From: Mycobacterium sp.
GTDB taxonomy: Bacteria > Actinomycetota > Actinomycetes > Mycobacteriales > Mycobacteriaceae
NCBI GenBank assembly: GCA_044370595.1
Contig: JBILVF010000001.1
Length of the DNA stretch: 64,000 nt
Reading direction: 5' to 3' (one strand)
The notes below the pieces were generated by a model. It saw only the letters and a list, made by a program, of their open reading frames with translations. It was not told the origin of the DNA and made no database searches. The translations under genes were made by a program, and so were the position numbers. Shown in pieces: positions 2,765-62,580 of the stretch. Positions within the stretch are counted from its first letter, which is position 1. Every line of letters starts with the position of its first letter.

Positions 2765-3916
2765 TTGATCGTTCCGCCCGGTCCTTCGGCATTGTCGCTG
2801 ATGACCGCCCTGCTGGGAGTCCTTGACGGTCGCGATTCCCCCCTGGTTCCGGTTCCGGCCTGCGATCTAAGAGTGAGCGAATCGCTGGCGGCAGCACTGC
2901 GGATCGGCGCCGAGATCGCCGATGACATCGCCCTGGTGATTCCCACCTCCGGCACCACCGGCACCCCGAAGGGCTCGATGCTGACTGCGGCGGCATTGAT
3001 CGCCAGCGCCTCGGCCACCCATGACCGCCTCGGCGGCCCGGGGACCTGGCTGCTGGCCCTGCCGACGCACCACATCGCCGGCGTTCAGGTTCTCGTGCGC
3101 AGCCTGCTGGCCGGAACGGTTCCGGCCGAGTTGGACGTCTCCGGCGGTTTCGACCCGGCCGAACTGCCGAGGGCGGTATCCGAACTCGGCTCCGGCCGCC
3201 GCTACACCGCACTGGTGGCCAACCAACTGGCCAACGCGCTGACCGACCCTGACGCGACCGCAGCGCTGGCCGACTTGGACGCCGTTCTGCTCGGCGGCGG
3301 GCCGGCCCCGGCTCCGGTGCTCGACGGTGCCGCCGAAGCCGGGATCACCGTGGTACGAACCTACGGTTCCAGCGAGACGGCCGGCGGGTGCGTCTACGAC
3401 GGGGTCCCCCTGGCCGGTGTGCAGGTGCACATCGACGACCCCGATCCGGCCGGGGAGGGACGCATCGTCATCGGGGGCGCCACCCTGGCATCGGGGTACC
3501 GCAATCCCCCGCATCCCGACCCGTTCGGCGAGCCGGGGTGGTTCCACACCGACGACCGGGGATGCTTCGACGCGTCCGGCCGGCTGTCGGTGCTCGGCCG
3601 CACCGATGACGCGGTCAACACCGGCGGGCTGACGATTCTGCCCGGCCCGGTCGAAGCGGTCTTGAATCGGCACCCGGGGGTGGCCGAATGCGCGGTGTTC
3701 GCCGTACCTGACGATCGACTCGGCCAGCGAATGGCCGTGGCGGTAGTGCCGGCCGCGGCTGCGGCGAGCCCCACCCTGGCCGAACTGCGCAAGTTTGTGG
3801 CCCGGTCACTGGACGCCAAAGCGGCGCCGCGGGAACTGCACTTCGTCGAGGAGCTCCCTCGCCTCGGCATCGGCAAACTGGACCGGCGGGCGTTGCGCCA
3901 ACGGTTCTCACCGTGA
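2765..3916 (+). CDS. menE: o-succinylbenzoate-CoA ligase
   Basis: TSGTTGTPKG AMP-binding loop, TYGSSETAGG; strong resemblance to mycobacterial MenE; start uncertain. Confidence 0.92.
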   Translation: MIVPPGPSALSLMTALLGVLDGRDSPLVPVPACDLRVSESLAAALRIGAEIADDIALVIPTSGTTGTPKGSMLTAAALIASASATHDRLGGPGTWLLALPTHHIAGVQVLVRSLLAGTVPAELDVSGGFDPAELPRAVSELGSGRRYTALVANQLANALTDPDATAALADLDAVLLGGGPAPAPVLDGAAEAGITVVRTYGSSETAGGCVYDGVPLAGVQVHIDDPDPAGEGRIVIGGATLASGYRNPPHPDPFGEPGWFHTDDRGCFDASGRLSVLGRTDDAVNTGGLTILPGPVEAVLNRHPGVAECAVFAVPDDRLGQRMAVAVVPAAAAASPTLAELRKFVARSLDAKAAPRELHFVEELPRLGIGKLDRRALRQRFSP

Positions 3917-3930
3917 CGAAAGCGTGACGA
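3912..3930 (+). promoter_or_regulatory. Direct repeat CGTGACGA-n3-CGTGACGA, candidate OmpR-type operator
   Basis: Identical octamers at 3912 and 3923 (11-bp period); -10 TAGGCT at 3958-3963, 7 nt before ATG 3971 (leaderless). Confidence 0.5.
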
Positions 3931-3970
3931 TAGAACCGGTTGCGTTGCCGCCACGGTTAGGCTCGAAATT

Positions 3971-4675
3971 ATGACCGCCCGCGTTCTGATCGCCGACGAC
4001 GACGCCGTGGTGCGCGACGTCGTCCGGCGCTACCTGGAACGCGACGGGCTCGAAGTGCGGGTGGCCGGCGACGGCAGCGAAGCTTTGCGGGTGCTGGGCA
4101 CCGAACGGATCGACGTGGCCGTCCTGGACGTGATGATGCCCGGCCCCAGCGGGTTGTCACTGTGCCGGACCCTGCGCCAAGGCGGCGACTACACCGTGCC
4201 GGTGATCCTGCTCACCGCCCTCGGCGAGGAGGACGACCGGATCGCAGGCCTGGAGGCCGGCGCCGATGACTACCTGACCAAGCCCTTCAGCCCACGGGAA
4301 CTCGCGCTGCGGGTGCGCTCTGTGCTGCGCCGCACCCCGGCGCCGCCGTCGACGGTGCCACTGGAGATCACGGTGGGCCAACTGACCGTCTCCACCGCGT
4401 CCCGATCGGTGACCATCGCCGGTGAACCGGTCGGCCTGACCAACCGGGAATTCGATCTGCTGTTGTTCTTCTTGACCCACACCGACACCGTGTTCTCCCG
4501 GGAGGAACTGCTCAAGCGGGTGTGGAACTGGGATTTCGGAGACTTGTCGACGGTTACCGTCCACGTCAAGCGGCTGCGCTCCAAACTGGGCGACCACCAT
4601 CGCGTCCAGACCATCTGGGGGCGCGGTTACCTTTGGCGGGGCGAAGCCGGCGGCGGTGACCGTGCCTCTGCCTGA
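3971..4675 (+). CDS. OmpR/PhoB-family response regulator
   Basis: Receiver (ADDD, VLDVMMPG, DDYLTKPF) plus winged helix ([21 protein letters not shown]). Confidence 0.95.
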   Translation: MTARVLIADDDAVVRDVVRRYLERDGLEVRVAGDGSEALRVLGTERIDVAVLDVMMPGPSGLSLCRTLRQGGDYTVPVILLTALGEEDDRIAGLEAGADDYLTKPFSPRELALRVRSVLRRTPAPPSTVPLEITVGQLTVSTASRSVTIAGEPVGLTNREFDLLLFFLTHTDTVFSREELLKRVWNWDFGDLSTVTVHVKRLRSKLGDHHRVQTIWGRGYLWRGEAGGGDRASA

Positions 4676-5687
4676 GTTGTTCGGGGATGCACTGCTCGCG
4701 CTGGGCTGCTCACTGCCGGTGGTGCTCTTCGGTGCGCTGATCATCAGGCTGGCCCGGTCGTGGTCGCTGTTGGTCAGCATGGTTGTCCTGGTGCTCATTC
4801 CGACGCTGGCTACGCTCGCCGGAGCGTTCTGCGCCAGCCGGTTCATGGCTCAACCGAGTTTCCGTGCGCTTGCGCTCGTGCTGCTGGTCGTCGCGGTCGT
4901 CACCGTGCCCTCCGCGGTGATGATGGCACGCTACCTCGCCCGAAGGACCGTGTGGGAACAGGAGATTCAAGACGCGGAGGCCGCCGCAGAGCAGTCCCGA
5001 CGCCAACTGGTCGCCTTCGTCAGTCACGACCTGCGCACCCCACTGGCAGGGATCCGGGCGCTGTCTGAGGCGATCGCCGACGGTGTGGTCAGCGACGACG
5101 AGGTACGAGTTCAGGCCAAGCGGATCGAGGGCGAGAGCATCCGCCTGCAGGAGATGGTCGACGACCTCTTCGAGATGGCCAAGATCAACGCCGGCGCGGT
5201 CAACGCGCCCTACGAACGGGTGGCGCTCGACGAGGTGGTCGACGATGTGATGTCCGCGCACGGAATCGCCGCCGAACGCGCCGGGGTGGCACTGCAAGCC
5301 GAGTTGCCGGCACATCCGGTCCGGGTGATCGGCAGCGATCGCGCCCTGGTGCGCGTGTTGTCCAACCTGGTCGCGAACGCGATCGCGCACACACCCGCCG
5401 GCGGCACCGTCACCCTGGCCGTGGGCGTCGATCAGGAGGGCGCCTGGGCCCGGGTGGACGACACCGGGGTGGGGATCGACGCCGCTGACCTGCCTCGAGT
5501 GTTCGACGTCGCCTACCGCGGCTCCAATGACCGCGTGCCGCGATCGGATTCGTCACTGCCCAGCGGATCGGGACTGGGCCTGGCGATCGCGGCAGGCCTG
5601 GTTCGGGCACACCGGGGTTCGCTGTCGGCGCGCAACCTGGCACGTGGTGCCCGGTTTGAAGTGCGACTGCCACTGGCGGCCGAGTAG
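4656..5687 (+). CDS. Sensor histidine kinase
   Basis: Two TM helices, H-box SHDLRTPL, N-box NLVANA, DTGVGI and GSGLGL; overlaps regulator stop. Confidence 0.95.
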   Translation: MTVPLPELFGDALLALGCSLPVVLFGALIIRLARSWSLLVSMVVLVLIPTLATLAGAFCASRFMAQPSFRALALVLLVVAVVTVPSAVMMARYLARRTVWEQEIQDAEAAAEQSRRQLVAFVSHDLRTPLAGIRALSEAIADGVVSDDEVRVQAKRIEGESIRLQEMVDDLFEMAKINAGAVNAPYERVALDEVVDDVMSAHGIAAERAGVALQAELPAHPVRVIGSDRALVRVLSNLVANAIAHTPAGGTVTLAVGVDQEGAWARVDDTGVGIDAADLPRVFDVAYRGSNDRVPRSDSSLPSGSGLGLAIAAGLVRAHRGSLSARNLARGARFEVRLPLAAE

Positions 5688-5706: not shown

Positions 5707-6567
5707 TCAGTCTGAGTGGGAGACCGCACGCCCGACGATCAGCGGGTCGGGCTGACCAACCGCCTCATAGTCCTTGTCGGCATAGTCGAACTTACTCAGG
5801 ACATGGCGCATGGCGTTGACGCGAGCACGCTTCTTGTCGTTGCTCTTGACGACCGTCCACGGTGCGACCTCGGTGTCGGTCCAGGTGAACATGTCGACCT
5901 TGGCGGCGGTGTAGTCGTCCCACTTGTCCAGCGAGGCAAGGTCAGTCGGTGAAAGTTTCCATTGCCGGACCGGATCAACGTGCCGGATGGTGAACCGGGT
6001 CCGCTGTTCGGACGGGGACACCGAGAACCACAGCTTGGTCAGGCTGATTCCGTCGTTGACGAGCATCTGTTCGAACAGCGGCACCTGCCTGACGAATTCA
6101 GCGTGTTGCTTGGGCGTGCAGTAGCCCATGACGCGCTCGACCCCGGCGCGGTTGTACCAGGACCGATCGAAGAGCACGATCTCTCCGGCCGACGGCAGGT
6201 GTTTGACGTAGCGCTGGAAATACCACTGCGTGCTTTCCCTTTCGGTCGGCTTCTCCAGTGCCACGACGCGCGCTCCGCGCGGATTGAGGTGCTCCATGAA
6301 CCGCTTAATGGTGCCGCCTTTCCCGGCGGCGTCGCGGCCCTCGAACACGATCACATGCCGCAGTCCGTTGGCCTTGGTCCAGTTCTGCAACTTCAGCAGT
6401 TCGACCTGGAGGATGTGTTTCTGCTCTTCGTAGTCAGGTCGGGACATTCGATGGTCATAGGGATAGTTCTCCCGCCAGGTATCCACCGCGACGCCGCTGG
6501 GATCGAGCAGGATCGGATCGTCGTCCTCGTCGTCGACAACGGTGTAGCCATCCAGGTGTATCTGCAC
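5707..6567 (-). CDS. ppk2: Polyphosphate kinase 2 (class I-like)
   Basis: FEGRDAAGKGG Walker A, FDRSWYNRAGVERVMG; -10 TAGGGT 6 nt before GTG (leaderless). Confidence 0.95.
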   Translation of the reverse strand: MQIHLDGYTVVDDEDDDPILLDPSGVAVDTWRENYPYDHRMSRPDYEEQKHILQVELLKLQNWTKANGLRHVIVFEGRDAAGKGGTIKRFMEHLNPRGARVVALEKPTERESTQWYFQRYVKHLPSAGEIVLFDRSWYNRAGVERVMGYCTPKQHAEFVRQVPLFEQMLVNDGISLTKLWFSVSPSEQRTRFTIRHVDPVRQWKLSPTDLASLDKWDDYTAAKVDMFTWTDTEVAPWTVVKSNDKKRARVNAMRHVLSKFDYADKDYEAVGQPDPLIVGRAVSHSD

Positions 6568-6600
6568 GCGCGCACCCTAACGCTCGTCGACGGCCCTGGG

Positions 6601-6617
6601 GTTACCGACAGGTGAAC
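6601..6617 (-). promoter_or_regulatory. Candidate PHO box at -35 to -50 of ppk2
   Basis: Sense strand GTTCACCTGTC-GGTAACCCCAG, 11-bp period. Confidence 0.55.
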
Positions 6618-6632
6618 GCTTGGCGGCCCCGG

Positions 6633-7748
6633 TCAGCCGATGCTGGTGACCGCACTGGCGACCCGGGTCTGAAGTTCGGGCGGCAACGGGATGTAGCCGA
6701 CCTTGTTGAGATCGGTCTGGCCGACGGTCACCGCCGATTGCAGGAAGGCTTGCACGGCCTCGCCGGTTTGTTTGTCCGGGTAGCGGGAACAGACGATCGC
6801 ATAACCGGCCAGCAGCAGTGGATATCCGAACTTCTCGGTCGGCTGGTAGGCCGGGGTCATATCGAGGACCAGGTTGTTGCCCTGCCCGGTGATGGTGACC
6901 GGCGCGATGGACGTGCCGACCCAGTCGGTACCGATGTGGGTGACACCTGCGGGGGTCTTGATGTCGGCGGTCGGCAGACCCTGGTCGATGGCGAAGGACC
7001 ACTCGTTGTAGGAAATCGCGCCGGGTGTGTTCTTGACCTTCTCGGCAGCGCCCTGGTTCCCGGTGGCTCCCTGGCCGACCTTGCCGTTGAAGGTTTTACC
7101 GGCACCGGCCTTCCACGCCCCATCCGATGCAGCCTGCAGGTATTGCTGGAAGTTGTCGGTCGTACCGGACTGATCGCTGCGGTGGACGACCTTGATGTCC
7201 ATCGCCGGCATCGAGGTGCGCGGGGTGGGGTGCGCTCGGCCGGACGGCAGGTTGAGGGCGGAGATGGCTGGATCGTCCCAGCGGGTGATCGCCCCCGAGA
7301 AGATGCCCGCCAGCGTCGGTCCGTCGAGGATCAACACGTCGGCCCCGGGCAGGTTGTAGGTGATCGCGATCGGCCCGAAGACGATCGGGATGTTGAGGGC
7401 ATCAGCGCCATCGCACCGCTTCTTGGCCGCCTCGTACTCACCGCCTTGAAGGGGTGAGTCCGAGTTGCCGAAGTCGGTCTTCCCGCTGATGAATTCCTGG
7501 ACTCCCGCACCGGAGCCGTTGGCTGTGTAGTCAAGTCCCTTGTCCGGGCAGGCGCTCTGGTACGCCTTGACGAAGTGGGTGATGGCGTTGGCCTGAGCGG
7601 TCGAACCGCTGGCAGTCAGCGACTGTTTGCCGGCACAGACCACCCGGACGTCCTGGGCGTAGGGCTGCACCGGTCCGGTCTGCGAGCAACCTGCGGCCAG
7701 GAACGCGGCCACGGCGACGACAGCGGCAGGGTTCCGTCTGGATCTCAT
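6633..7748 (-). CDS. pstS: Phosphate-binding lipoprotein PstS (no pstCAB adjacent)
   Basis: Lipobox FLAAGC; ASGSTAQANA, DFGNSD, RSDQSGTTDNF motifs. Confidence 0.92.
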   Translation of the reverse strand: MRSRRNPAAVVAVAAFLAAGCSQTGPVQPYAQDVRVVCAGKQSLTASGSTAQANAITHFVKAYQSACPDKGLDYTANGSGAGVQEFISGKTDFGNSDSPLQGGEYEAAKKRCDGADALNIPIVFGPIAITYNLPGADVLILDGPTLAGIFSGAITRWDDPAISALNLPSGRAHPTPRTSMPAMDIKVVHRSDQSGTTDNFQQYLQAASDGAWKAGAGKTFNGKVGQGATGNQGAAEKVKNTPGAISYNEWSFAIDQGLPTADIKTPAGVTHIGTDWVGTSIAPVTITGQGNNLVLDMTPAYQPTEKFGYPLLLAGYAIVCSRYPDKQTGEAVQAFLQSAVTVGQTDLNKVGYIPLPPELQTRVASAVTSIG

Positions 7749-7854
7749 CTCGGTTGCCTCCAGGGGACGTGGCGCATCGGGGGTTCAGTCGCGCCGGTCG
7801 GCCGACGATGCACCGGGTCGAAGCGGAACCCTAGGCCCGCGAGGCGACGCAGCG

Positions 7855-7922
7855 GTGAAGTCTGATTGAACACCGGGTGCACGGTAGGGTCGGACGAACT
7901 GCCGTTCACGCGCCGTTCACGC
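7855..7922. promoter_or_regulatory. Two back-to-back PHO-like repeat arrays in the divergent pstS/phoU promoter
   Basis: GTGAAG 7855, TTGAAC 7866, GTGCAC 7877 (11-bp period); perfect tandem GCCGTTCACGC x2 at 7901-7922. Confidence 0.7.
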
Positions 7923-7964
7923 GCTGTCGGCGATTGATTCTCCTCCGACCTCTACCCTCGCCAC

Positions 7965-8699
7965 ATGCGGTCCGCGTACGGTGCCCAACTTCAGGCCCTG
8001 ACCGATCAGCTGGCGCACATTTGCCAGTTAACCGGTAGCGCAATGGAAAACGCGACTCACGCTGTTCTCCAAGCCGATCTGCTTCTTGCGGAGCAGGTTA
8101 TCGGAAGTCACGAGACCATCACGTTCCTCAGCTGCAAGGCTGAGGAGGCCGGTTTCCAACTGCTCGCCCTCCAGTCGCCGATGGGCCGTGATCTGCGGGC
8201 GGCGGTCAGCTCGCTACAAATCGTCGCCGACCTTGAACGTATGGCGGCACTGGCTGTCCACGTGGCCGAGATCGCCCGACTCCGCCATCCACAACACGCC
8301 CTGCCCGAAGACGTCAATGGCTACTTCGCCGAAATGGGCCGTATCGCTGTTGATTTGGCAGGGAGCGCGTACCAAGTCATCCAATCGTGCGACCTCGGCA
8401 GGGCCCGTTACATACGGGACGCCGATGATGCGATGGACGACCTGCACCGGCACTTGTTCACGGTATTGCTGGACCGAGAGTGGCGACACGGCACAACCGC
8501 CGCAGTAGACACGACTCTGCTGAGCCGTTATTACGAGCGGTTCGCCGACCACGCGGTGGAAATCTCGCGGCGGATCATTTTCCAGGCGACCGGGCAGATT
8601 CCCGCCGCGACCAGATCCGCCGCCGTCACACCCCGTTCACCGATTGCCGGTGTACGGCTCCGTGGCACAGCGCCGACAGTCCCCCACGGCCGTCCCTAG
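7965..8699 (+). CDS. phoU: Phosphate signalling protein PhoU (PhoY2-like)
   Basis: [39 protein letters not shown]; -10 TACCCT 6 nt before ATG. Confidence 0.93.
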
Positions 8700-9438
8700 G
8701 CAGGTGCAGTGGGAGCACCTGGACGTGAACGGTGGTACCACGCGCCCGGACGATGCGCCGTATCGACGCCCACAGGGAATCCTCTCCGAGGAAAGCAGTC
8801 GCGGTGGACGGACTGCCGTCCCGGTGGTGGTAGCTCAGACGCAGGGGTTGTACCGGTCGGACCGCGTCGATGGCGGCCTGGAACAGCGCGGGTCTGAAGT
8901 CACCGTGATCGGTGCCGCAATAGGTGGTGCCTTCCGGAAAGGCGACCACGGTGTGCCCGTTGCGCAGTCGGTCGACCACGGTGTCGACAACGGCGGGAAG
9001 CTGACGAAGGCTGGCCCGGTCGATGGGAATGACGCTGGCCATTCGCGCCGCGATGCCAACCGCCGGCCAGTCGAAGACATCGGCACGCGCCACGAAAGAG
9101 CCCGGTAGTACTGCTCCGATCGCGAAGATGTCGACCCAGGACACGTGGTTGCTGACGACCAGCATGCCCCGAAGATTGCGGATGGGGTCCCCGGAGAGGG
9201 TGAATCGGATGCCCAGGCATCCCAGCAGGGTCCGGCAGTAGAACCGCTGCGCGTGAGGCCGCCACGGCAGCGGGAGGGCGAGCACGGGCAGCGTCGTCAC
9301 AATCAGCCCGGCGGCGACGATCCGCCGGGCGGCCCGGATCGCGGCCACCAGGCGATGGTCGGGCTCACCGAGCCCGGCACGCACACATTCCGGTGTGCAC
9401 GACGTCTTCGGCAGCCAGGCATGCTCGGTCGCGGTCAC
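8626..9438 (-). CDS. Lysophospholipid acyltransferase, OlsA-like (Rv3026c-like)
   Basis: SNHVSWVD (HX4D) and FPEGTT motifs; start overlaps upstream GNAT stop. Confidence 0.85.
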
Positions 9439-10274
9439 CAGCGGTGCGTTCCCTGAGCGATCGCGGCGGCATGCTGACCTGCCGCAGCAGCAGACCGCAG
9501 CCGGGTGAGGAATCGCAGATCGACTCTGCGCTTGTCCAGAAGTGCGAGGAAGTCACCGACTCCGAACTGGGGATCGTGGGCGGGTTCACCGCAGATCTGT
9601 GCACCAAGCCGAAGGTAGCCACGCATCAGGGCGGGGATGGTCGTGCGTGCAGGCGGGTCGATGCTGTCAAGGGGGCGGCCTTCGAGTTGCACCGGCCGGT
9701 AGGGACGCACGGTGAACTCCGGGGCGGCCCCATGCCGCTGCAGGACCGCATCCCGGATTCCCCGAAGCTGACTCCCCGGCGGCCCCTCGGTGTGGGTGGG
9801 GACGGAGACGCAGCCGATGACGTAGTCGTAGCCGCAACGATCCAGGTAGGCCAGGATTCCGGTCCACATCATCAGAATCACCGCACCGTTGCGATGATCT
9901 GCACGCACCACGGCACGCCCCATCTCGACCGTGAAGGGCCGGAGCGCGTCCAGTGCGGAAATGTCGAATTCCCGCGCCGAGTAGAGTCCGCCTGCGGCGA
10001 TGGCGCCGGGCGGGGGCAGCATTCGATAGCAGCCCACAAGTTCACCGGTGTGGTCTTCGCGGACGATGAGGTGGTCGCAGTAGTCGTCGAAACAGTCGAT
10101 GTCGAGTTGGTCCTCATTGCGAAGCGTGAAGCCCGACTCGGTCGAGAACACTTCGTAACGGAGTCGCTGGGCGGCCAGGATGTGGCCGGGCTCGGACGTC
10201 AAGAGCAGGGTGTAGCGGGGATCGCGGTCGAATCTCGTTTGTTGCGGGGCGATGAGTACTGACGTTGCGCTCAC
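9435..10274 (-). CDS. GNAT N-acyltransferase, OlsB-like (Rv3027c-like)
   Basis: AAQRLRYEVF, D.FDDYCDHL, VGCYRML, EMGRAVV, LMRGYLRLGAQICGEPAHDPQFGVGD. Confidence 0.85.
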   Translation of the reverse strand: MSATSVLIAPQQTRFDRDPRYTLLLTSEPGHILAAQRLRYEVFSTESGFTLRNEDQLDIDCFDDYCDHLIVREDHTGELVGCYRMLPPPGAIAAGGLYSAREFDISALDALRPFTVEMGRAVVRADHRNGAVILMMWTGILAYLDRCGYDYVIGCVSVPTHTEGPPGSQLRGIRDAVLQRHGAAPEFTVRPYRPVQLEGRPLDSIDPPARTTIPALMRGYLRLGAQICGEPAHDPQFGVGDFLALLDKRRVDLRFLTRLRSAAAAGQHAAAIAQGTHRW

Positions 10275-10389
10275 AACCCGAACGATGTTCGGGTCAAATG
10301 TCTGTATCGAAACCGAACGATGTTGTGTCGGTGTACATAACGTTAATCATCGGAGCATCGCGCCCGCTTCGATGTCGGGCGGCGGAGCG

Positions 10390-11298
10390 TCAGGCCAACA
10401 GCGGGTAAACAAGACCGTCCACAGGCACCCCGGATAACGCGATCAGAACCAGTCGGCCCGAGTCGCCGGCCCGCCAGGGACCTTCGGTGCTGATGGTTCG
10501 CCGGGTGGCAACCCGATGGACCACCGTGCGTCGATCGGGCGACTCCTTCAGCTGGACAATGCCTTTCACGCGCAGCACCCCCTCCGGAAGCCCGTCCAGG
10601 AATCGTTCGAGCCGCGGCCGGTCGATGGGCTGTTCCAGCGGGACACTCACGGTGAGGTAGTCGTGGCCATGGTCGTGGGCGGTCGGTTCGATGCCCGGCA
10701 GGCCATCGTGGGCGAAGCCGGCCAGTGCCGACACCGGAACGTCGCCGTCGCGGGCATGAAGCACCGGCACACCCGGCGCGGACCGGGCCAGCCACTCATC
10801 GAGTTCAGCGAGTTGGGCGGCCGAGACCAGATCGGTCTTGTTGAGCACCAACACATCCGCAGCAGCGAGCTGGCGGCGGATGGTGCGGCCGACCACCGGA
10901 TGGCGCTCCCGGCGGCGCACCGTCTCGGCGTCCAGCAGCACCACGATCCCGTCCAGATCGAATCCGGGTGTCAGTGCGTGGTGGGAGATCGGGGCCGGGT
11001 CGGCGATACCGCTGGCTTCGATGACGACGTGATCCGGGGGGTCCTCGCGGTCGCGGACCGACCACAGTGCCGTCATGAGGTCACTGCCGATCATGCAACA
11101 CACGCACCCGTTGGTCAGCGTGATGGTGTCACCGTCGGCCGCGGCGATGAGGTCGCCGTCAATGCCGATGTTGCCGAAGTCGTTGACCAGCACGGCGATC
11201 CGGCGCCCTACCGTCTGACGAAGCACCCGGTTGAGCAATGTCGTCTTTCCCGAACCGAGGTATCCGCCGATCACCGTGACGGGGATCGACGGCTTCAC
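10390..11298 (-). CDS. COG0523/CobW family metallochaperone GTPase
   Basis: GGYLGSGKTT, VNDFG, GCVCC, EASG, NKTD, RVKG C-terminal domain; GTG 11298 overlaps upstream TGA (GTGA). Confidence 0.9.
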   Translation of the reverse strand: MKPSIPVTVIGGYLGSGKTTLLNRVLRQTVGRRIAVLVNDFGNIGIDGDLIAAADGDTITLTNGCVCCMIGSDLMTALWSVRDREDPPDHVVIEASGIADPAPISHHALTPGFDLDGIVVLLDAETVRRRERHPVVGRTIRRQLAAADVLVLNKTDLVSAAQLAELDEWLARSAPGVPVLHARDGDVPVSALAGFAHDGLPGIEPTAHDHGHDYLTVSVPLEQPIDRPRLERFLDGLPEGVLRVKGIVQLKESPDRRTVVHRVATRRTISTEGPWRAGDSGRLVLIALSGVPVDGLVYPLLA

Positions 11299-12944
11299 CG
11301 GCGTGCGGCCTGAAACACCTCGCCGCCCACCACGGTGCCCCACACCTCGATGTCGCGGATCCCCATCGGTTCGACGTCGAGTGGGGAGTCTTTGAGCGCT
11401 GCGAAATCGGCATACTTGCCAGCCTCGATGGAACCGATCTCGTGATCCATGTGCAACTGGAAGGCAGCACCGAGGGTGGCCGCGTGCAGCGCCTCGTACG
11501 GGGTGATCTTCTCGTACTCGCCGAGCACCCGGCCGCTGGGAGTGATGCGGTTGACCGCGCACCACATCGTCATCAGGTGGCCCACCGGGGTGACACCGGA
11601 GTCGGTGTGGAACGACAACGGCACGCCCGAGTTCAACGCCGTGCGGCACGCCCACATCCCACGGGTCCGCTCGGGGCCCATGGTGAGTTCATAGTGCTGG
11701 TCACCCCAATACCAGATGTGGTTGGTGAAGATGTTGGCGCAGATACCCAGCCGACCCATCCGGCGGTACTGGGCGGCGGTGGTCATCTGGGAGTGCTGCA
11801 CGACGTGGCGGTGATCCAGCCAGGCATCGGTGCGCAGCACCTCCTCGACGGCGTCGATGAAGATCTGCCCGGCGCCGTTGCCGTTGCAGTGGCAGTGCAC
11901 ATTGAGCTTGCGGGCATGAAACGCCCGAACGGCGGCCAACATGTCCTCCGGGGAGAACATCAGCAGCCCGTGGTCCTCGCCGGTGAAGTAGCCGGGCTCG
12001 TTGACCACCGCGGTCCAGCCCTGGATCGAACCGTCGGCGACCAGTTTGATACCGGGGGCACGCAGTTTGTCGGATTCGATCTCACGCAACCTCAGCGCGG
12101 CGTCGGCCACCGCGTTGTAGTCCACGGTGCTGCCCGGCATCACCGGCAGGTTGTAGAGCACCATTCGAGCCGGGAACGTCGGCGCGTTGACCGTGTCCTG
12201 CCAGACCTTCACCTGATCCGGCGCGATCAGGAGCATTCCGATGAGTTCGGTGGACGTCGTCACCCCGGCATTGCGGCACATCGCCGCATGGATCTCGATC
12301 GGCCTCGGTCCGAGGCTGGCGGCCATCAGCTTGTCGAACGCCGACTTGGCCAGGGTCATGGCCGGAGCCTCCTGAAGCTCGCCGTTGAGTTCACCGTCGG
12401 CGTCGCGGCCGATGCCCGGCGTCGGCGAATCTTTGGTGATGCCCTCCGCCTGCAGCAGCGCGGTGTTCACCGTCGCCAGATGTCCGCTGGCGTGCCGGAC
12501 GAAAACCGGCCGGACAGTGGAGACCTGATCCAGTTCGCGCCTGGACAGCCGCGGCAGATGCGGGAAGTAAATCGGGTCGAATCCGTTGGCCACCAGAGGT
12601 TCTCCCGGCGGCAGGACGGAGTCTTGAGCCTTCAGACGTTCGATGAGGTCCTCATAGCTGCGGATGGGTGTGGTGGCCCGGCCGTCCGACAGCGGGTAAG
12701 GGTGGTAGCCGACGTAGGGCATGAGTTCGCTGGCACTGTCAGCGGTATGGCCGTGGGCTTCGACGAAGCCGGGGATCAGGACGTGGTCGGCGAAGCGGTC
12801 GTCGACCTCCGCCGGTCCCCAGGACTGGCATTCCGCCAGGCTGCCAGCACATACGATCCGGCCCTCTCGCACCGCGACCGCCTGAACCTCCGGGTTGGCC
12901 GGATTCATGGTGACGACTTTGCGGGCCGTGAAAATCGTGGTCAC
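11295..12944 (-). CDS. Metal-dependent amidohydrolase (Amidohydro_3/YtcJ-like)
   Basis: PGFVEAHGH, KLVADGSIQG, HCNGN, QHSQ, GSIEAGKYADF. Confidence 0.9.
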   Translation of the reverse strand: MTTIFTARKVVTMNPANPEVQAVAVREGRIVCAGSLAECQSWGPAEVDDRFADHVLIPGFVEAHGHTADSASELMPYVGYHPYPLSDGRATTPIRSYEDLIERLKAQDSVLPPGEPLVANGFDPIYFPHLPRLSRRELDQVSTVRPVFVRHASGHLATVNTALLQAEGITKDSPTPGIGRDADGELNGELQEAPAMTLAKSAFDKLMAASLGPRPIEIHAAMCRNAGVTTSTELIGMLLIAPDQVKVWQDTVNAPTFPARMVLYNLPVMPGSTVDYNAVADAALRLREIESDKLRAPGIKLVADGSIQGWTAVVNEPGYFTGEDHGLLMFSPEDMLAAVRAFHARKLNVHCHCNGNGAGQIFIDAVEEVLRTDAWLDHRHVVQHSQMTTAAQYRRMGRLGICANIFTNHIWYWGDQHYELTMGPERTRGMWACRTALNSGVPLSFHTDSGVTPVGHLMTMWCAVNRITPSGRVLGEYEKITPYEALHAATLGAAFQLHMDHEIGSIEAGKYADFAALKDSPLDVEPMGIRDIEVWGTVVGGEVFQAARR

Positions 12945-12966: not shown

Positions 12967-14097
12967 TCAGTCGTCGAGGGTGCGGAACAGCCGCTCGGCG
13001 GCGTTGACGTAGTCCTCGATGAACTCCAGGACCACCTCCCGGGCGGGTTTGATCTTGTTCATCAGACCGACACCCTGACCGACCCAGTAGGTGGACAGCG
13101 CCTGGGCGCCGGGGTGCCCGCCCTCGGCGAGCTTGTCGATGCGGCGCAACGCCGGTTCGGCGATCATCGCCTGCAGCGGCAGTGGCAACGGTTGGCGGCC
13201 TTTCGGACTGGGCGCCCAGGCGTCGGTCCAGTCCGACCGCAACTGCCGCGACGGCTTTCCGGTTCGGCCGGCCGAGCGGACGGTGTCCCGCGAGGACGCC
13301 GCGAGCATCTTCTGCTTGGTGAACGGAGCGGTCTCAGCCTCGTCGGTGGTCAACCACACCGAACCGGTCCACGCTCCCGCGGCGCCCATCGCCACACAGG
13401 CCGCCATCTGCCGGCCGGTGACGATGCCACCGGCGGCGAGCACCGGCACGTCCTTACCGCCGGGGATCTCGGCGATGGCGTCGAGCACCTCCGGGATGAG
13501 CACCAGCGTCGTCACCTCGCCGCAGTGCCCGCCGGCCTCGGTGCCCTGGACCACGATGAGGTCGACACCCGCCTGAACCTGCTTGATGGCATGTTCCTTG
13601 GCGCCGACCAGAGCAGCGACCGGAATCCCGCGTTCCTTGCCGGCCTCGATCATGTAATCCGGCGGCACGCCCAGCGCATTGGCCATCATCGCGATCGGAT
13701 GGTTGAGCGCAACGTCGAGTAATCCCTTGCCGGTGTCTCCACCGAGTGCGGAGGAACCCACTCGCAGTTCCTCGGCCTCGATGTCGTGTGCCTGGAGAAG
13801 TTCGTTGATGAAGTCCCGGTACTCCGCCGGGATACGTTCGGCCAACTGGTCGCGCGTGAGATTTTCGCCCTTGCCCTCGTACTTGGCCGGAACGATGATG
13901 TCCACGCCGTAGGGCTTGCCGTTGACGTGCTCGTCGATCCAGGTCAGTTCCTGCTCGAGTTGGTCGGGCCGAAACGCCACGCCGCCCAGAACGCCGAACC
14001 CGCCCGCGTTGGTCACCGCGGCAACCACGTCGCGGCAGTGACTGAAGGCGAACAGCGGGAACTCGATGCCGAACCGGTCACAAATCTCTGTCTTCAC
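12967..14097 (-). CDS. Nitronate monooxygenase-family FMN oxidoreductase (Rv1894c-like)
   Basis: FAFSHCRDVVAAV, QGTEAGGHCG, AAGGI; GTG 14097 chosen. Confidence 0.85.
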   Translation of the reverse strand: MKTEICDRFGIEFPLFAFSHCRDVVAAVTNAGGFGVLGGVAFRPDQLEQELTWIDEHVNGKPYGVDIIVPAKYEGKGENLTRDQLAERIPAEYRDFINELLQAHDIEAEELRVGSSALGGDTGKGLLDVALNHPIAMMANALGVPPDYMIEAGKERGIPVAALVGAKEHAIKQVQAGVDLIVVQGTEAGGHCGEVTTLVLIPEVLDAIAEIPGGKDVPVLAAGGIVTGRQMAACVAMGAAGAWTGSVWLTTDEAETAPFTKQKMLAASSRDTVRSAGRTGKPSRQLRSDWTDAWAPSPKGRQPLPLPLQAMIAEPALRRIDKLAEGGHPGAQALSTYWVGQGVGLMNKIKPAREVVLEFIEDYVNAAERLFRTLDD

Positions 14098-14130
14098 GCA
14101 GTCCAGTATGGACACGGGCGTGACCAGTCG

Positions 14131-14907
14131 TTACGGCAGGTCGAAGGGAAGCTCCACACCCTCATGGGCCAGGCAGTGCGTGCAGACGCGTTCGGCTCTC
14201 ACCCCGTCGATGGCGCGGTGCACCAACTCCTTGAACGGGCCGATGTTGCGCTCGAACTCCCCGAAAACGTCGACGGCGCGAACCCCCGCCCCGACCGTCA
14301 CCCCGGCGTCGATATCGGTCACCAAGGCGATTGCGGCGTAACACATTTCCAGTTCCCGGGCCAGCACAGCCTCGGGATATCCGGTCATGTTCACCAGCGT
14401 GAAACCCTGCCGGGCGAACCACTGACTTTCCGCGCGAGTGGAGAACCGCGGCCCCTGCACCACCACCATGGTGCCGCCGTCGACCACCCCGGGCTGGGCT
14501 GCGGCGACCGCGCGCAGCGTCGGGCAGTACGGGTCGGCGAATTCGACGTGGATGCCGCCGGAATCGAAGTAGGTGTCGGGGCGGCCGCGGGTGCGGTCCA
14601 CGAGTTGGTCGGGGACCACGACCGCGCCGGGGCCCAACTCGGCGGTGAGGCTGCCGACCGCGCACGGCCCGAACACTCTGCGCACCCCCAGCGCCCGTAG
14701 CGCCCACATGTTGGGGCGGTACGGCACGGTGTGCGGGGAGAACTCGTGGCTGCGACCGTGCCGGGGCAGGAAGGCGACCTCGTGGCAGCCCACCCGCCCG
14801 ACCGTGATCGGTGCGCTCGGCGGCCCGTAGGGCGTATCCACGGTGACGCTGCGCGCATCCCTGCCGAAGAAGGAGTAGAAGCCGCTTCCGCCGATCACGC
14901 CGATCAT
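14131..14907 (-). CDS. mtaP: S-methyl-5'-thioadenosine phosphorylase (Rv0535-like)
   Basis: IGVIGGSG, FLPRHG, GPRFSTRAES, VNMTGYPE; alternative start 14925. Confidence 0.92.
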   Translation of the reverse strand: MIGVIGGSGFYSFFGRDARSVTVDTPYGPPSAPITVGRVGCHEVAFLPRHGRSHEFSPHTVPYRPNMWALRALGVRRVFGPCAVGSLTAELGPGAVVVPDQLVDRTRGRPDTYFDSGGIHVEFADPYCPTLRAVAAAQPGVVDGGTMVVVQGPRFSTRAESQWFARQGFTLVNMTGYPEAVLARELEMCYAAIALVTDIDAGVTVGAGVRAVDVFGEFERNIGPFKELVHRAIDGVRAERVCTHCLAHEGVELPFDLP

Positions 14908-15063
14908 CCCTGCATTGTCGGGCACTAGGCTCCTTCGAATGTTCCGGATCGGCACGGCGATTGTCCTGGGCCTCTGCGCCGCAGTGGCGGTCGGGGTGAC
15001 CCGCAACCTGACCACCCGGCGGATGGCCAGCACCATCAACCTCGTCCTGGAACTGGCCGTCTG

Positions 15064-46419: not shown

Positions 46420-47202
46420 GTGACACGCAGGCACCCTGGCGAGGTCGATCTGGACTTTCCCCGCGAGTGGGTGGAGTTCTACGACCCGGCCAACCCGGAG
46501 CATCTGATCGCCGCGGATCTGACCTGGCTGCTGTCGAGTTGGACGTGTGTCTTCGGTACGCCCGCCTGCCAGGGAACCGTCGAAGGCCGGCCCGACGACG
46601 GGTGCTGTTCGCACGGGGCGTTTCTATCCGACGACGACGACCGGGCCAACCTCGACGATGCCGCCGCGAAACTGACGGACTCCGACTGGCAGTTCCGCGA
46701 CAAAGGCCTGGGACGCAAGGGTTACCTGGAGATGGACGCCTATGAGGGCAAACCGAATCTGCGGACCCGCAAATACAAGGGCGCCTGCATCTTTCTGAAC
46801 CGCCCCGGCTTCCCTGGCGGGATCGGCTGCGCACTGCACAGCAAGGCACTCAAACTCGGCGTCGAGCCGATGACGATGAAACCTGAGGTGTGCTGGCAGC
46901 TTCCGATCAGGCGCACCCAGGAGTGGGTGACCCGGCCCGACGGCAGCGAGATCCTCAAGACCACGCTCACCGAATACGACCGGCGCGGCTGGGGTGAGGG
47001 CGGAGTGGACCTGCACTGGTACTGCACCGGAGACCCTGCTGCGCACGTGGGAAAGAAGCAGGTGTGGCAGACCTATGCACCTGAACTCACCGAACTGCTC
47101 GGCGAGAAGGCTTATGCGGAACTGGCCGGAATGTGCAAGCGACGCCGCGGATTCCCGCTGATCGCGGTTCATCCGGCGACCCAGGCCGCCGGTCGCGGCT
47201 AG
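46420..47202 (+). CDS. Conserved Cys-rich protein (Rv0495c-like)
   Basis: [34 protein letters not shown]; -10 TACCGT 7 nt before GTG 46420. Confidence 0.88.
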
Positions 47203-47876
47203 CCTTCCAGCTTGTAACCCAGCCCGCGGACGGTCACCAGACGCACCGGGTTGGCCGGATCGACCTCGATTTTGGACCGCAGGCGTTTGACGTGGACGTC
47301 GAGGGTTTTGGTGTCCCCGACGTAGTCCGCGCCCCACACCCGGTCAATCAGCTGACCGCGGGTCAGCACCCGGCCCTTGTTGCGCATCAGGAAGGCGAGA
47401 AGCTCGAATTCCTTGAGCGGCATCGGTATCGGCTTGCCCTCGACACTGACTATATGGCGCTCGATATCCATCCGCACCGGCCCCGCCTCCAGCACCACAT
47501 CGCCCGCATCGGATTCACTGCCGCGCCGCAGCACCGCCCGGATACGGGCGATGAGTTCACGCGCCGAATACGGCTTGGTGACGTAGTCGTCAGCCCCCAG
47601 TTCCAGGCCGAGCACCTTGTCGATTTCGCTGTCCCGGGCGGTCACCATGATCACCGGGACGCTGGATCGGGCCCGCAGATGCTTGCAGACCTCCGTCCCG
47701 CTCATACCGGGCAGCATCAGGTCGAGCAACACGATGTCGGCGCCGGAACGGTCGAACTCGGCCAGCGCCGCGGGCCCGTCGGCCACCACGGTCGCCTCGA
47801 ATCCCTCCTTGCGCAGCAGATAGGCAAGCGGTTCGGCCAGCGACTCCTCGTCCTCGACGATCAACACCTGAATCAC
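47199..47876 (-). CDS. regX3: Phosphate-sensing response regulator RegX3
   Basis: [37 protein letters not shown]; synteny with gpmA. Confidence 0.95.
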
Positions 47877-49045
47877 TGCTCCTCCTGATCTCCATTGTCG
47901 TCGGCGTCTTGGCCGCCGTAGGCGGGAATTGACAAGGTGAACGTCGAACCGGTTCCACGCCTGCTCCAGAGCCGGATATTGCCGTTGTGGTTGGCGGCGA
48001 CGTGCTTGACGATGGCCAATCCCAGTCCGGTCCCACCGGTGGCGCGCGACCGTGCCTTGTCGACGCGGAAGAACCGCTCGAACACCCTCTCCTGATCTTC
48101 GAGGGCAATTCCGATGCCACGATCGGTCACGGCGATCTCGACCATATCGCCGTGCCGACGGCGGCTGATCGACACCGTCGAACCCCTCGGCGAATATGCA
48201 ATCGCATTGGAGATGAGGTTGGCGATCGCAGTGACCAGCAGGGCTTCGTCGCCCAGCACCTGCAGCCCGGTCTCATCGTCGATCTTGACGGTGATGTTTT
48301 CCTTCTCCGCGACTACCTTGTGGCGGGAAATCGCCTCCTGTACAACAGTATCGACATCGACGGCCACCAAATCCGGCAGTCGTTCGGCGCCCTGCAGCCG
48401 GGACAGCTCGATCAGCTCACCGACCATATTGGCCAGCCGCTGCGACTCGGTGTAGATCTTGCCGCCGAACCGCTGCACGGTGTCCGGATCGTCGGTGGAC
48501 TCCAGCAGCGCCTCGGACAGCACTGCCATCGCAGCAACCGGGGTCTTGAGTTCGTGACTCACGTTAGCGACGAAGTCCCGCCGGCTGGCCTCCATACGGA
48601 CCTGCTCGGACTGGTCATCGAGGTAGACGACCGCCATTCGCGGAGACTGATCACTGAGCAGACGGATCGTGCCGTGCACCGCCAGACCAGCGCGCCGTCC
48701 CGAGAGTCCCCGCGGGGCAGACAGATCCACCTCGGTGTCCTGACCGGTGGCCAGGGTTCGCTGCACGACTTTCCACAACCGCTCGTCGAGCACACCGTCG
48801 CGCATCACACCCATTTCGGAGACCCGACTGTTCATGACCGGCACCCCCCGGGTGGAGTCGACCACCAGGACGCCGACCGGAGCGTTGGAGACCGTGCGCT
48901 GCAGGATCTCCGCCACCGTGCGCCCGGCCTCAGTATCGGCGGACCGACGTCGCCGGGCCGAGGACATCGCGCGGGTCGCAATCGAGCCGAGCGCGAGGCC
49001 CACCAGTCCGGTGAGGACCGCGAGCGCGACCGCGCTAACACTCAC
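47873..49045 (-). CDS. senX3: Sensor histidine kinase SenX3
   Basis: [30 protein letters not shown]; GTGA overlap with regX3. Confidence 0.95.
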
Positions 49046-49105
49046 GCGGCAAAGCGTACGCATCCACCGACGCCCGGCAAATTCGGTAGGCCCGCCGAAC
49101 TGCGA

Positions 49106-49133
49106 GTTCAGTGGGTGTTAACCCGCCGTTCCA
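49106..49133. promoter_or_regulatory. Candidate RegX3 autoregulatory boxes
   Basis: GTTCAG 49106, GTTAAC 49117, GTTCCA 49128 (11-bp period). Confidence 0.55.
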
Positions 49134-61692: not shown

Positions 61693-62580
61693 ATGGCCGA
61701 GAAGAATTCGCGCGAGAAGTCCGCACTGCGAGAGAAATCCCTGTGGACCCACCACCCCTCGGAGGCGCTGCGTTTCCGCCCGGGGAACAAGGTCAGCGAG
61801 ATCGAAACCAACACCAGCCCTGGTTTCACCGGCAACCGCGACGACGCCGAGGCTGTCACCGCTGAGCGTGGTGAGCACTTCGCCGAGTTGCAGGAGATGC
61901 TCTACGCCAACGGCCGGGAAGGTGACCACCGCTCGGTGCTGCTCGTGCTGCAAGGCATGGACACCGCGGGCAAGGGCGGCATCGTCACCCACGTGGTCGG
62001 TGCCGGGAACCCGATGGGCATCGACTACCACAGCTTCGGCAAGCCCACCCCGGAGGAGCGCGCACACCATTTCCTCTGGCGGATCAACAAGGCACTCCCC
62101 CGGGCCGGGCACATCGGCGTGTTCGACCGCTCGCACTATGAGGACGTCCTGGTGGTCCGGGTGCACGAGTTGGTGCCGCCCGATGAACTGGAGGGGCGCT
62201 ACGACGAGATCAACACCTTTGAGTCCGAACTCGTCGAGGCGGGCACCAGCATCGTCAAGGTGGCTATGTTCGTCTCACTCGAGGAGCAGAAGGCGCGGCT
62301 CACCGAGCGCCTCCAGCGGCCGGACAAGTTCTGGAAGTACAACCCTGGAGATCTCGACGAGCGCAAGCTGTGGCCGGGCTACCAGGAGGCCTACCAGGTC
62401 ATGCTGGACCGGACAAACACCGATCACGCGCCGTGGTTCGTGCTGCCGTGCGACAAGAAGTGGTATGCCCGACTGGCGGTCACCGAACTGCTCATCGAGG
62501 CCCTGACGGCCATGGATTTGTCCTGGCCGCCAGCGGATTTCGACGTCGAACTGGAGCGAAAGCGGGTGGCTGAAGCCTGA
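61693..62580 (+). CDS. PPK2-family polyphosphate:nucleotide phosphotransferase (class III-like)
   Basis: LQGMDTAGKGG, FDRSHYEDVL, WKYNPGDLDER. Confidence 0.9.
   Translation: MAEKNSREKSALREKSLWTHHPSEALRFRPGNKVSEIETNTSPGFTGNRDDAEAVTAERGEHFAELQEMLYANGREGDHRSVLLVLQGMDTAGKGGIVTHVVGAGNPMGIDYHSFGKPTPEERAHHFLWRINKALPRAGHIGVFDRSHYEDVLVVRVHELVPPDELEGRYDEINTFESELVEAGTSIVKVAMFVSLEEQKARLTERLQRPDKFWKYNPGDLDERKLWPGYQEAYQVMLDRTNTDHAPWFVLPCDKKWYARLAVTELLIEALTAMDLSWPPADFDVELERKRVAEA

Follow-up and report, generated by a model that had tools for sequence, protein, structure and literature searches.

Ordinary Pho-regulon genes gathered with their promoters at one locus in a clade of small-genome Mycobacterium

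We analyzed a 64,000-nt stretch of Mycobacterium sp. DNA (the window; contig C38 of assembly GCA_044370595.1, which comprises 3.75 Mb in 268 contigs and is 99% complete) in which ppk2, pstS, phoU and an olsBA-like pair stand side by side. We read this block as a lineage-specific gathering of ordinary Pho-regulon genes that would be activated by RegX3 under low phosphate, and on the sequence evidence we give this reading a probability of about 70%. Sequence comparison placed the gathering in a clade of small-genome Mycobacterium metagenome-assembled genomes (MAGs), mostly from lakes, and its parts appear to be a ppk2 that moved with its promoter, an old orphan pstS, a recent phoU duplicate and a moved olsBA pair. 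The arrangement is new, in that a small-genome clade, largely from lakes, has brought Pho-regulon genes and their promoters together; the mechanism is a known one. A literature search returned no paper that mentions ppk2, pstS, phoU and olsB together. The preliminary description of the locus, as a low-phosphate survival module under RegX3, was partly supported: it was right in outline for ppk2, pstS and phoU, while its proposed control of olsBA was not backed by the sequence.

To locate Pho boxes, the window was scanned for GTTCACN5GTTCAC with up to 2 mismatches, using shuffled sequence as the control. The scan returned 13 matches against 5.1 ± 2.4 expected, and none of the shuffles reached 13. 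Four of the 13 lay in the ppk2 and pstS/phoU promoter regions, at 6601-6617(-), 7855-7871(-), 7866-7882(-) and 7904-7920(+), the last being a perfect match. The three promoters showed a common geometry, with 21 nt between the last hexamer and a TAGGGT/TACCCT -10 element and, for ppk2 and phoU, a start codon 6 nt further on. The ppk2 gene is apparently leaderless; pstS has a leader of ~70 nt with a GGAGG ribosome-binding site. Alignment with the loci of two related MAGs (L011 and L016) showed the hexamers, the -10 elements and the ribosome-binding site as conserved islands amid variable, indel-bearing sequence. The pstS array was one of these islands, and the phoU array kept its hexamers with spacers that differed in all three loci. 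The same conservation of hexamers and -10 elements, with varying spacers and flanks, extended across L011, L016, L018, L066 and the rearranged locus of L012. All five kept the ppk2 box and its -10 (with a different gene upstream in L012), and L012 also retained a box, ATTCACctgggGTTCAA, ahead of phoU. The GTTCAC-like hexamers with an 11-bp period that had been described before these three genes were thus borne out, both by the window matches and by their conservation in orthologous loci.

A whole-genome scan was then performed with a Pho-box matrix of 7 columns made from 11 units, at a threshold of 12 bits. Six of the eight sites at 18 bits or more were intergenic, compared with ~11% intergenic sequence in the genome. 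High-scoring intergenic matches outside the training set were found upstream of a PHO4-family pit gene, a gene for a two-domain PPK2, and senX3; others stood before a signal-peptide protein gene on contig C168 and at a site on contig C148 without a clear downstream gene. On contig C37, boxes precede the canonical pstS (GTTCACcctccGTTAAC) and the canonical phoU (TTTCACcgtccGTTCAG), and in relatives phoU is preceded by ATTCACc-N4-GTTCAC. Because the same box occurs at canonical pstSCAB, phoU, pit, the two-domain PPK2 gene and senX3, we identify the 11-bp GTTCAC box from its distribution as the general Pho box of this genome, not one specific to the block. The ppk2 of the block brought its box from its ancestral site, and the phoU of the block has the box and leaderless-start layout of the canonical phoU from which it came. 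Co-regulation, as previously proposed, stands for ppk2, pstS and phoU in that they share a conserved Pho box; it is weakened by boxes that occur genome-wide, by at least four separate transcription units among the five genes, and by an olsBA pair without a scoring box. The "module" is therefore a co-location with a shared regulon and not an operon.

The RegX3 regulator to which the block had been assigned is indeed encoded 40 kb away in the window. Its winged-helix region differs from that of M. tuberculosis RegX3 at just two surface residues (V/A and R/H), which follow the recognition helix. The senX3-regX3 pair is preceded by a gpm-like histidine-phosphatase-family gene, an arrangement that we take to match the gpm1-senX3-regX3 order of M. 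tuberculosis. GTGAAC-like repeats upstream of senX3 were also present in several relatives. That RegX3 sites contain GTGAAC, as the preliminary description stated, agrees with the motif given in the secondary account of PMC7525159 (citing Glover 2007), and the same account reports that the senX3 region binds RegX3. In M. smegmatis, induction of phoU1 depends on SenX3-RegX3 (PMC12301784). We found GTGAAC/GTTCAC hexamer repeats about one helical turn apart at phosphate-acquisition promoters, which points to a RegX3-type Pho box. RegX3 is the best candidate to bind these boxes, and we infer both binding and low-phosphate induction from the sequence.

To determine the distribution of the block, one genome per species was scanned for close PstS relatives and their flanks were checked; in addition, a separate DNA search with 6.3 kb was made over 24 genus members. 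The full five-gene set was present in this genome and in three related MAGs (L011, L016 and L012). In L011 and L016 the arrangement was complete, down to the two-component system and menE. L012 carried the same five genes in another order (ppk2, pstS, phoU, then olsA and olsB on the opposite strand) and in another context. L018 and L066 had pstS followed by ppk2, L014 had a 41-residue ppk2 remnant upstream of pstS, and the remaining members of the clade had pstS alone (some on short contigs). Among the 24 genus members the parts were scattered, with ppk2 80-125 kb from the two-component system, and pstS and phoU were matched only at the level of paralogs. The small number of carriers and the reordering in L012 indicate that the block is rare and that its linkage survived rearrangement. 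The synteny check thus showed that the block is not widespread, with the full set in four genomes.

The ppk2 product scored above the family cut-off and contains one PF03976 domain (residues 41-266) with the Walker A motif GRDAAGKGG, which identifies it as a PPK2 with predicted enzymatic activity. Its orthologs within the clade were 93-97% identical. In typical relatives, orthologs with 84-85% identity lie ~100 kb off, beside the ortholog of this genome's C38:85924-86871, from which we conclude that ppk2 moved ~70 kb. The ppk2 box also occurs in typical relatives (L096-L100, L103 and L104), as GTTCACc-N4-gTCACC followed by TAATTT or ATATTT; the ppk2 promoter is therefore older than the block. 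The genome holds five PPK2-family genes in total. One distant paralog lies in the window at 61693-62580 and is 31% identical to the ppk2 of the block.

The pstS product has a PBP_like_2 domain and a signal peptide with the lipobox LAAGC; its score above the cut-off and its predicted fold as a secreted solute-binding lipoprotein identify it as PstS. Its identity with the canonical pstS (contig C37) was 54%. In the tree it fell within a 16-member orphan clade (support 100) of Mycobacterium MAGs, many of whose samples are labeled as lake or otherwise aquatic, and this clade was nested in a wider mycobacterial orphan-PstS group. On these comparisons the pstS of the block is an old orphan paralog. 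No pstCAB stood beside this gene or its 16 close orthologs, and the sole pstCAB found in the genome was on contig C37. The PstS of the block would presumably use that transporter.

The phoU product contains two PF01895 stretches, and its RYYERFADH matches the RxxERxxDH motif (motif source: PMC12301784, as RxxERxxD(R/H)). Together with its score and its position inside the canonical mycobacterial PhoU clade, this identifies it as a PhoU. It was 68% identical to its one paralog, which adjoins pstSCAB on contig C37. The copies in the window, L011, L016 and L012 formed a clade sister to the canonical PhoU of this genome (support 97/94) inside the canonical mycobacterial PhoU group, and four of five complete relatives had a single phoU. 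This sister placement indicates a lineage-specific duplication and rules out orthology with PhoU2/PhoY2.

Several features of the phoU frame are recorded here. It converges with olsA and overlaps it by 74 bp (8626-8699). Its C-terminal tail (residues about 213-244) lacks conservation: the alignments of orthologs end at residues 217-229. Within the overlap stands a Pho-like sequence, CGTCACaccccGTTCAC (8624-8640), probably by chance. Third-codon-position GC was 0.71 for phoU (7965-8699) and 0.75 for olsB (9435-10274), compared with 0.80-0.88 in neighboring genes; because of this low value, phoU was missed by a simple gene caller based on third-position GC.

The olsBA-like pair showed its best NCBIfam matches to OlsB and OlsA, below curated cut-offs of models that were built on proteobacterial enzymes. 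The olsB stop and the olsA start overlap at 9435-9438, giving the operon layout of a GNAT gene followed by a PlsC gene, and the OlsA-like protein contains HX4D and FPEGT motifs. Each gene is single-copy in the genome, and the pair is conserved across the genus; its orthologs in relatives lie on other contigs, and megabases away in complete genomes. A PF13444 check of control genomes gave no match in the mycobacterial or the Streptomyces control. In S. coelicolor the olsBA operon (SCO0921-SCO0920) was shown experimentally to make ornithine lipid and to be induced by phosphate limitation; the authors equate it with Rv3027-Rv3026, and we take the orthology of the window pair to Rv3027-Rv3026 from that work (PMC4686642). 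A role of the window pair in ornithine-lipid synthesis is plausible on its sequence, and its link to low phosphate is drawn by analogy with this Streptomyces precedent.

Upstream of olsB, a weaker hexamer pair had been described before the GNAT gene. The pair exists on the minus strand, as GTACAC (10336-10331) and CAACAT (10325-10320) with an 11-bp period, and it was kept in L011, L016 and L012. At the homologous position in ten typical relatives (L111-L120) there is a three-unit array, CGTCAT-N5-GTGCAC-N5-CGTCAC, with an 11-bp period and ~50-80 nt upstream of olsB, which scored 9.5 bits, under the 12-bit threshold. This array may be a regulator site for ornithine-lipid genes that decayed in the lineage of the window.

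Table 1. Features of the window, with bit scores against the model cut-off where one applies
Feature	Position	Strand	Detail
menE	2765-3916		
Direct repeat, CGTGACGA x2	3912-3930	+	11-bp period; spans the menE stop and precedes the response regulator gene; also kept in L011 and L016
Resident OmpR-family response regulator	3971-4675	+	Pfam; 39% identical to RegX3
Resident histidine kinase	4656-5687	+	Pfam; 343 aa, no PAS domain; 32% identical to SenX3
ppk2, single-domain (class I type) polyphosphate kinase 2	5707-6567	-	TIGR03707, 382 bits against 301.8
ppk2 promoter	6574-6617	-	Pho box GTTCACctgtcGGTAAC (6617-6601), 21 nt, -10 TAGGGT (6579-6574), 6 nt, GTG start
pstS, orphan paralog, lipoprotein phosphate-binding protein	6633-7748	-	TIGR00975, 296.9 bits against 205; no adjacent pstCAB
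pstS promoter	7828-7882	-	Three-unit array GTGCACccggtGTTCAAtcagaCTTCAC, GTGCAC/GTTCAA/CTTCAC (7882-7855), 21 nt, -10 TAGGGT (7833-7828)
phoU promoter	7904-7958	+	GTTCACgcgccGTTCAC (7904-7920), weak third unit GTCGGC (7926-7931), 21 nt, -10 TACCCT (7953-7958), 6 nt, ATG
phoU paralog	7965-8699	+	TIGR02135, 164 bits against 130.25
olsA-like PlsC-type acyltransferase	8626-9438	-	PF01553, 87 bits; OlsA models, 108 and 106 bits against 300
olsB-like GNAT/Acetyltransf_5	9435-10274	-	PF13444, 113 bits; OlsB models, 119 and 117 bits against 320 and 350
Conserved element upstream of olsB	10320-10345	-	ATTAACGTTAT, GTACAC cgaca CAACAT; no scoring Pho box
cobW-like (COG0523) GTPase	about 10390-11292	-	Inside the inserted block
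Amidohydrolase	11295-12944	-	Inside the inserted block
Nitronate-monooxygenase-family (NMO) gene	12967-14115	-	
PNP/MTAP-family phosphorylase	14131-15039		Adjoins menA
regX3	47199-47876	-	415 bits against M. tuberculosis RegX3 (PDB 2OQR)
senX3	47873-49063	-	~40 kb from the block
Three-unit array upstream of senX3	49106-49133	+	GTGAAC-like units on the senX3 sense strand

The locus had been described as five genes in a non-core block between menE and mtaP. Five complete genus relatives show the order menA-mtaP-NMO-histidine kinase-response regulator-(~6 kb)-menE, with the kinase directly beside the NMO gene. Because the gap between kinase and NMO gene is empty in these relatives, 5707-12944 is a 7.2-kb insertion, and the comparison shows the two-component system as a resident of the menE-mtaP interval beside which the block was inserted, on the side of the NMO gene. 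The description was right that the block is non-core and omitted two of the inserted genes, the cobW-like GTPase and the amidohydrolase, which are in the inserted block here and in L011 and L016, and not in L012. In typical relatives (L091-L095), ~6 kb of genes stands between menE and the response regulator; here these genes are missing and the two are 54 bp apart (3917-3970), which fits genome reduction.

Horizontal transfer or a mobile element was considered and rejected. No flanking repeats were found, and neither an integrase nor a tRNA gene was seen among the called genes. In the trees, PhoU and PstS both fell inside mycobacterial clades, and for ppk2 and olsBA, typical relatives have orthologs of 65-85% identity at other sites. 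A search of the block against Rfam gave no match to a riboswitch or other known RNA at E <= 0.1, and no intrinsic terminators were found at the five genes. A consensus scan found no standard sigma-70 -35/-10 promoter at any of them, which fits activator-dependent promoters.

Other Pho-like sites in the genome were also recorded. The genome's second-best Pho-box match (C168:4246-4274) has three units, GTTGAC/GTTCAC/GTTCAC; the open reading frame near 4332 on that contig encodes the signal-peptide protein (MKHSLKPTLLAALVALGPVIAAA...), is cut by the contig end, and could be a phosphate-starvation-induced envelope protein. At C227:27338-27366, a three-unit Pho-like array lies directly upstream of a gene for a 179-aa protein with a GreA/GreB C-terminal domain, possibly a regulator with a link to polyphosphate or nucleotide metabolism. 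A Pho-like box of 16.5 bits (C142:12051-12068) lies upstream of the gene for the second cobW-like GTPase of the genome, the first being the one in the inserted block; a link between COG0523 proteins and phosphate limitation is possible on this evidence. In the ~560 bp at L016:8480-9046, extra sequence stands between olsA and phoU in an otherwise syntenic locus.

PhoB-type activators recruit RNA polymerase. Under the RegX3 reading, low phosphate would cause SenX3 to phosphorylate RegX3, and RegX3~P would bind in head-to-tail fashion at arrays of two or three 11-bp units with a GTTCAC core, the last ending 21 nt upstream of the -10, and would there recruit RNA polymerase. The induced PstS lipoprotein would feed the single PstCAB transporter, PPK2 would draw on stored polyphosphate to make nucleoside triphosphates, and the extra PhoU would feed back negatively on SenX3. 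By analogy with Streptomyces, olsBA would probably swap phospholipid for phosphorus-free ornithine lipid. The physiological role given to each protein is a prediction.

Several points weigh against this reading. Mycobacteria have other OmpR-family regulators that read repeats with a TCAC core, and the co-location of the genes could be neutral. The Pho-box matrix was trained partly on sites of the block itself, so that the ranks of those sites are circular and only matches outside the training set are independent. The hexamer pair before olsB scored -2 bits on this matrix, no better than chance, and was rejected as a Pho box; this score, taken with the 9.5 bits in relatives, leaves control of olsBA by the same regulator unsupported by sequence. 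The published arrangements of RegX3 sites also differ from the direct 6-7-bp units with an 11-bp period found here. The motif is described as an inverted repeat with a 5-7-nt spacer in the account of Glover 2007 given by PMC7525159, and the one mapped M. tuberculosis site, in esx-5, GGTGCcaactGGTGA, consists of 5-bp direct repeats with a 5-bp spacer and a 10-bp period (bioRxiv 10.1101/400960). This mismatch lowers the case that the boxes are identical to a published site, and would not lower the case that they are read by RegX3.

The arrangement of the repeats is also what would favor a different OmpR-family reader, PhoP-like or MtrA-like, in place of RegX3. The units resemble those of Streptomyces PhoP or the Microlunatus PolR site as much as published RegX3 sites, and they fit Streptomyces PhoP GTTCACC and Microlunatus PolR GTTCACnnnnnGTTCaC better than the esx-5 site (PMC4415409, PMC6754071, bioRxiv 10.1101/400960); several paralogous response regulators are encoded in the genome. 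We nevertheless consider such a reader highly improbable. The boxes stand at pstSCAB, phoU and senX3, and the senX3 promoter itself bears an array; M. smegmatis phoU1 induction needs senX3 (PMC12301784), the senX3 region is reported as RegX3-bound in PMC7525159 (citing Glover 2007), and in the literature surveyed SenX3-RegX3 was the sole mycobacterial phosphate-starvation regulator described. The two-component system beside the insertion was a further candidate for control of the inserted genes, and together with the extra PhoU and the orphan PstS it might make up a second circuit for phosphate sensing. It directly adjoins the insertion here and in L011 and L016, its response regulator has a recognition helix (VHVKRLRSK) identical to that of RegX3, and its kinase is almost without an extracytoplasmic domain and would need an accessory sensor. 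Against this, five complete relatives have the system at the same site and lack Pho genes next to it. L012 carries all five genes and L018 carries pstS-ppk2, and neither has the system on that contig or within 10 kb. A close DNA match to it was present in 13 of the 24 genus members and in none of ten others; protein searches in five of these ten found no ortholog of the kinase, the best match being 36-40% over the catalytic core. One of the five, G018, retains the ppk2 box. The response regulator has no ortholog among solved M. tuberculosis response regulators (best PrrA, 150 bits). Its likely own site is the CGTGACGA x2 repeat, an exact repeat and the sole match in the window, which from its position is likely autoregulatory and not a Pho box, and which was absent inside the block and at other Pho genes. 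The kinase also lacks a PAS domain, which in SenX3 is essential for phosphate sensing (PMC12301784). We rejected this system as the main regulator on the synteny of relatives, L012 and L018, its own box and G018, and regard its control of the inserted genes as very unlikely. The broader proposal, that the PhoU duplicate and the orphan PstS joined the neighboring PAS-less kinase and its response regulator to become a self-contained second phosphate-sensing circuit apart from SenX3-RegX3 in phosphorus-starved lake mycobacteria, would be a long shot.

The remaining alternative accepts the Pho regulon and denies meaning to the co-location, with genome-reduction rearrangement having placed independently regulated genes together. 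Each gene keeps its own promoter, ppk2 and olsBA brought their ancestral upstream elements, the genome is small and has lost the sequence between regulator and menE, the apparently unrelated cobW-amidohydrolase pair shares the insertion, and most pstS orthologs in the clade stand alone. In contrast, the presence of all five genes in another order and context in L012 requires at least two rearrangements that preserved linkage, ppk2-pstS adjacency occurs in both orders in six genomes in addition to the remnant in L014, and olsBA, lying megabases away in complete relatives, was not brought in by deletion alone. We consider a functionally meaningless co-location unlikely, and the gathering of RegX3-activated Pho-regulon genes remains our preferred reading.

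Phosphorus is often limiting in lakes. The results give a Pho-box picture for environmental mycobacteria, with GTTCAC units at an 11-bp period, 21 nt from the -10 and often before leaderless genes, and a predicted regulon of pstSCAB, phoU, pit, two PPK2 genes and senX3. They also provide a case of Pho-regulon genes physically gathered with promoters intact, which is useful for MAG annotation and for studies of regulon consolidation. A freshwater Mycobacterium culture has been reported (PMC12381374). The complete MiE-22 genome (L024), in which the pstS ortholog is on its own, may belong to that strain.

Compared with known systems, the block is closest in regulator to the SenX3-RegX3 Pho regulon of M. 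smegmatis and M. tuberculosis (pstSCAB, phoA, phoU1 and senX3; GTGAAC in the account cited above), with the same regulator pair, a near-identical DNA-binding domain and the same hexamer. In that regulon boxes likewise stand upstream of pstS, phoU and senX3, and PhoU is a negative-feedback component (PMC12301784, PMC7525159). It differs here in a second, orphan pstS, a duplicated phoU and a ppk2 gathered at one locus, and in direct 11-bp repeats in place of the inverted repeat of that account or the 10-bp esx-5 site. The second phoU of M. smegmatis (phoU2) is driven by SigF, whereas the extra phoU here has a Pho box. The PHO boxes of Streptomyces PhoR-PhoP (GTTCACC) have the same unit and 11-bp period in two- or three-unit arrays at the -35 position (PMC4415409); there, pstS and phoU belong to the regulon, and phosphate limitation induces olsBA (PMC4415409, PMC4686642). 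In contrast, the proposed regulator here is RegX3 and olsBA lacks a scoring box. In Microlunatus phosphovorus, the PolS-PolR site upstream of ppk, ppgk, pit and pstS shows an identical consensus at polyphosphate and phosphate-transport genes (PMC6754071); however, PolR is of DevR/NarL type and thought to be oxygen-responsive, and nothing here suggests that type of regulator. The S. coelicolor olsB-olsA genes are likewise an overlapping pair of a GNAT N-acyltransferase followed by a PlsC-type O-acyltransferase, whereas the window pair has moved beside Pho genes and scores under the proteobacterial OlsA/OlsB cut-offs, its activity being putative.

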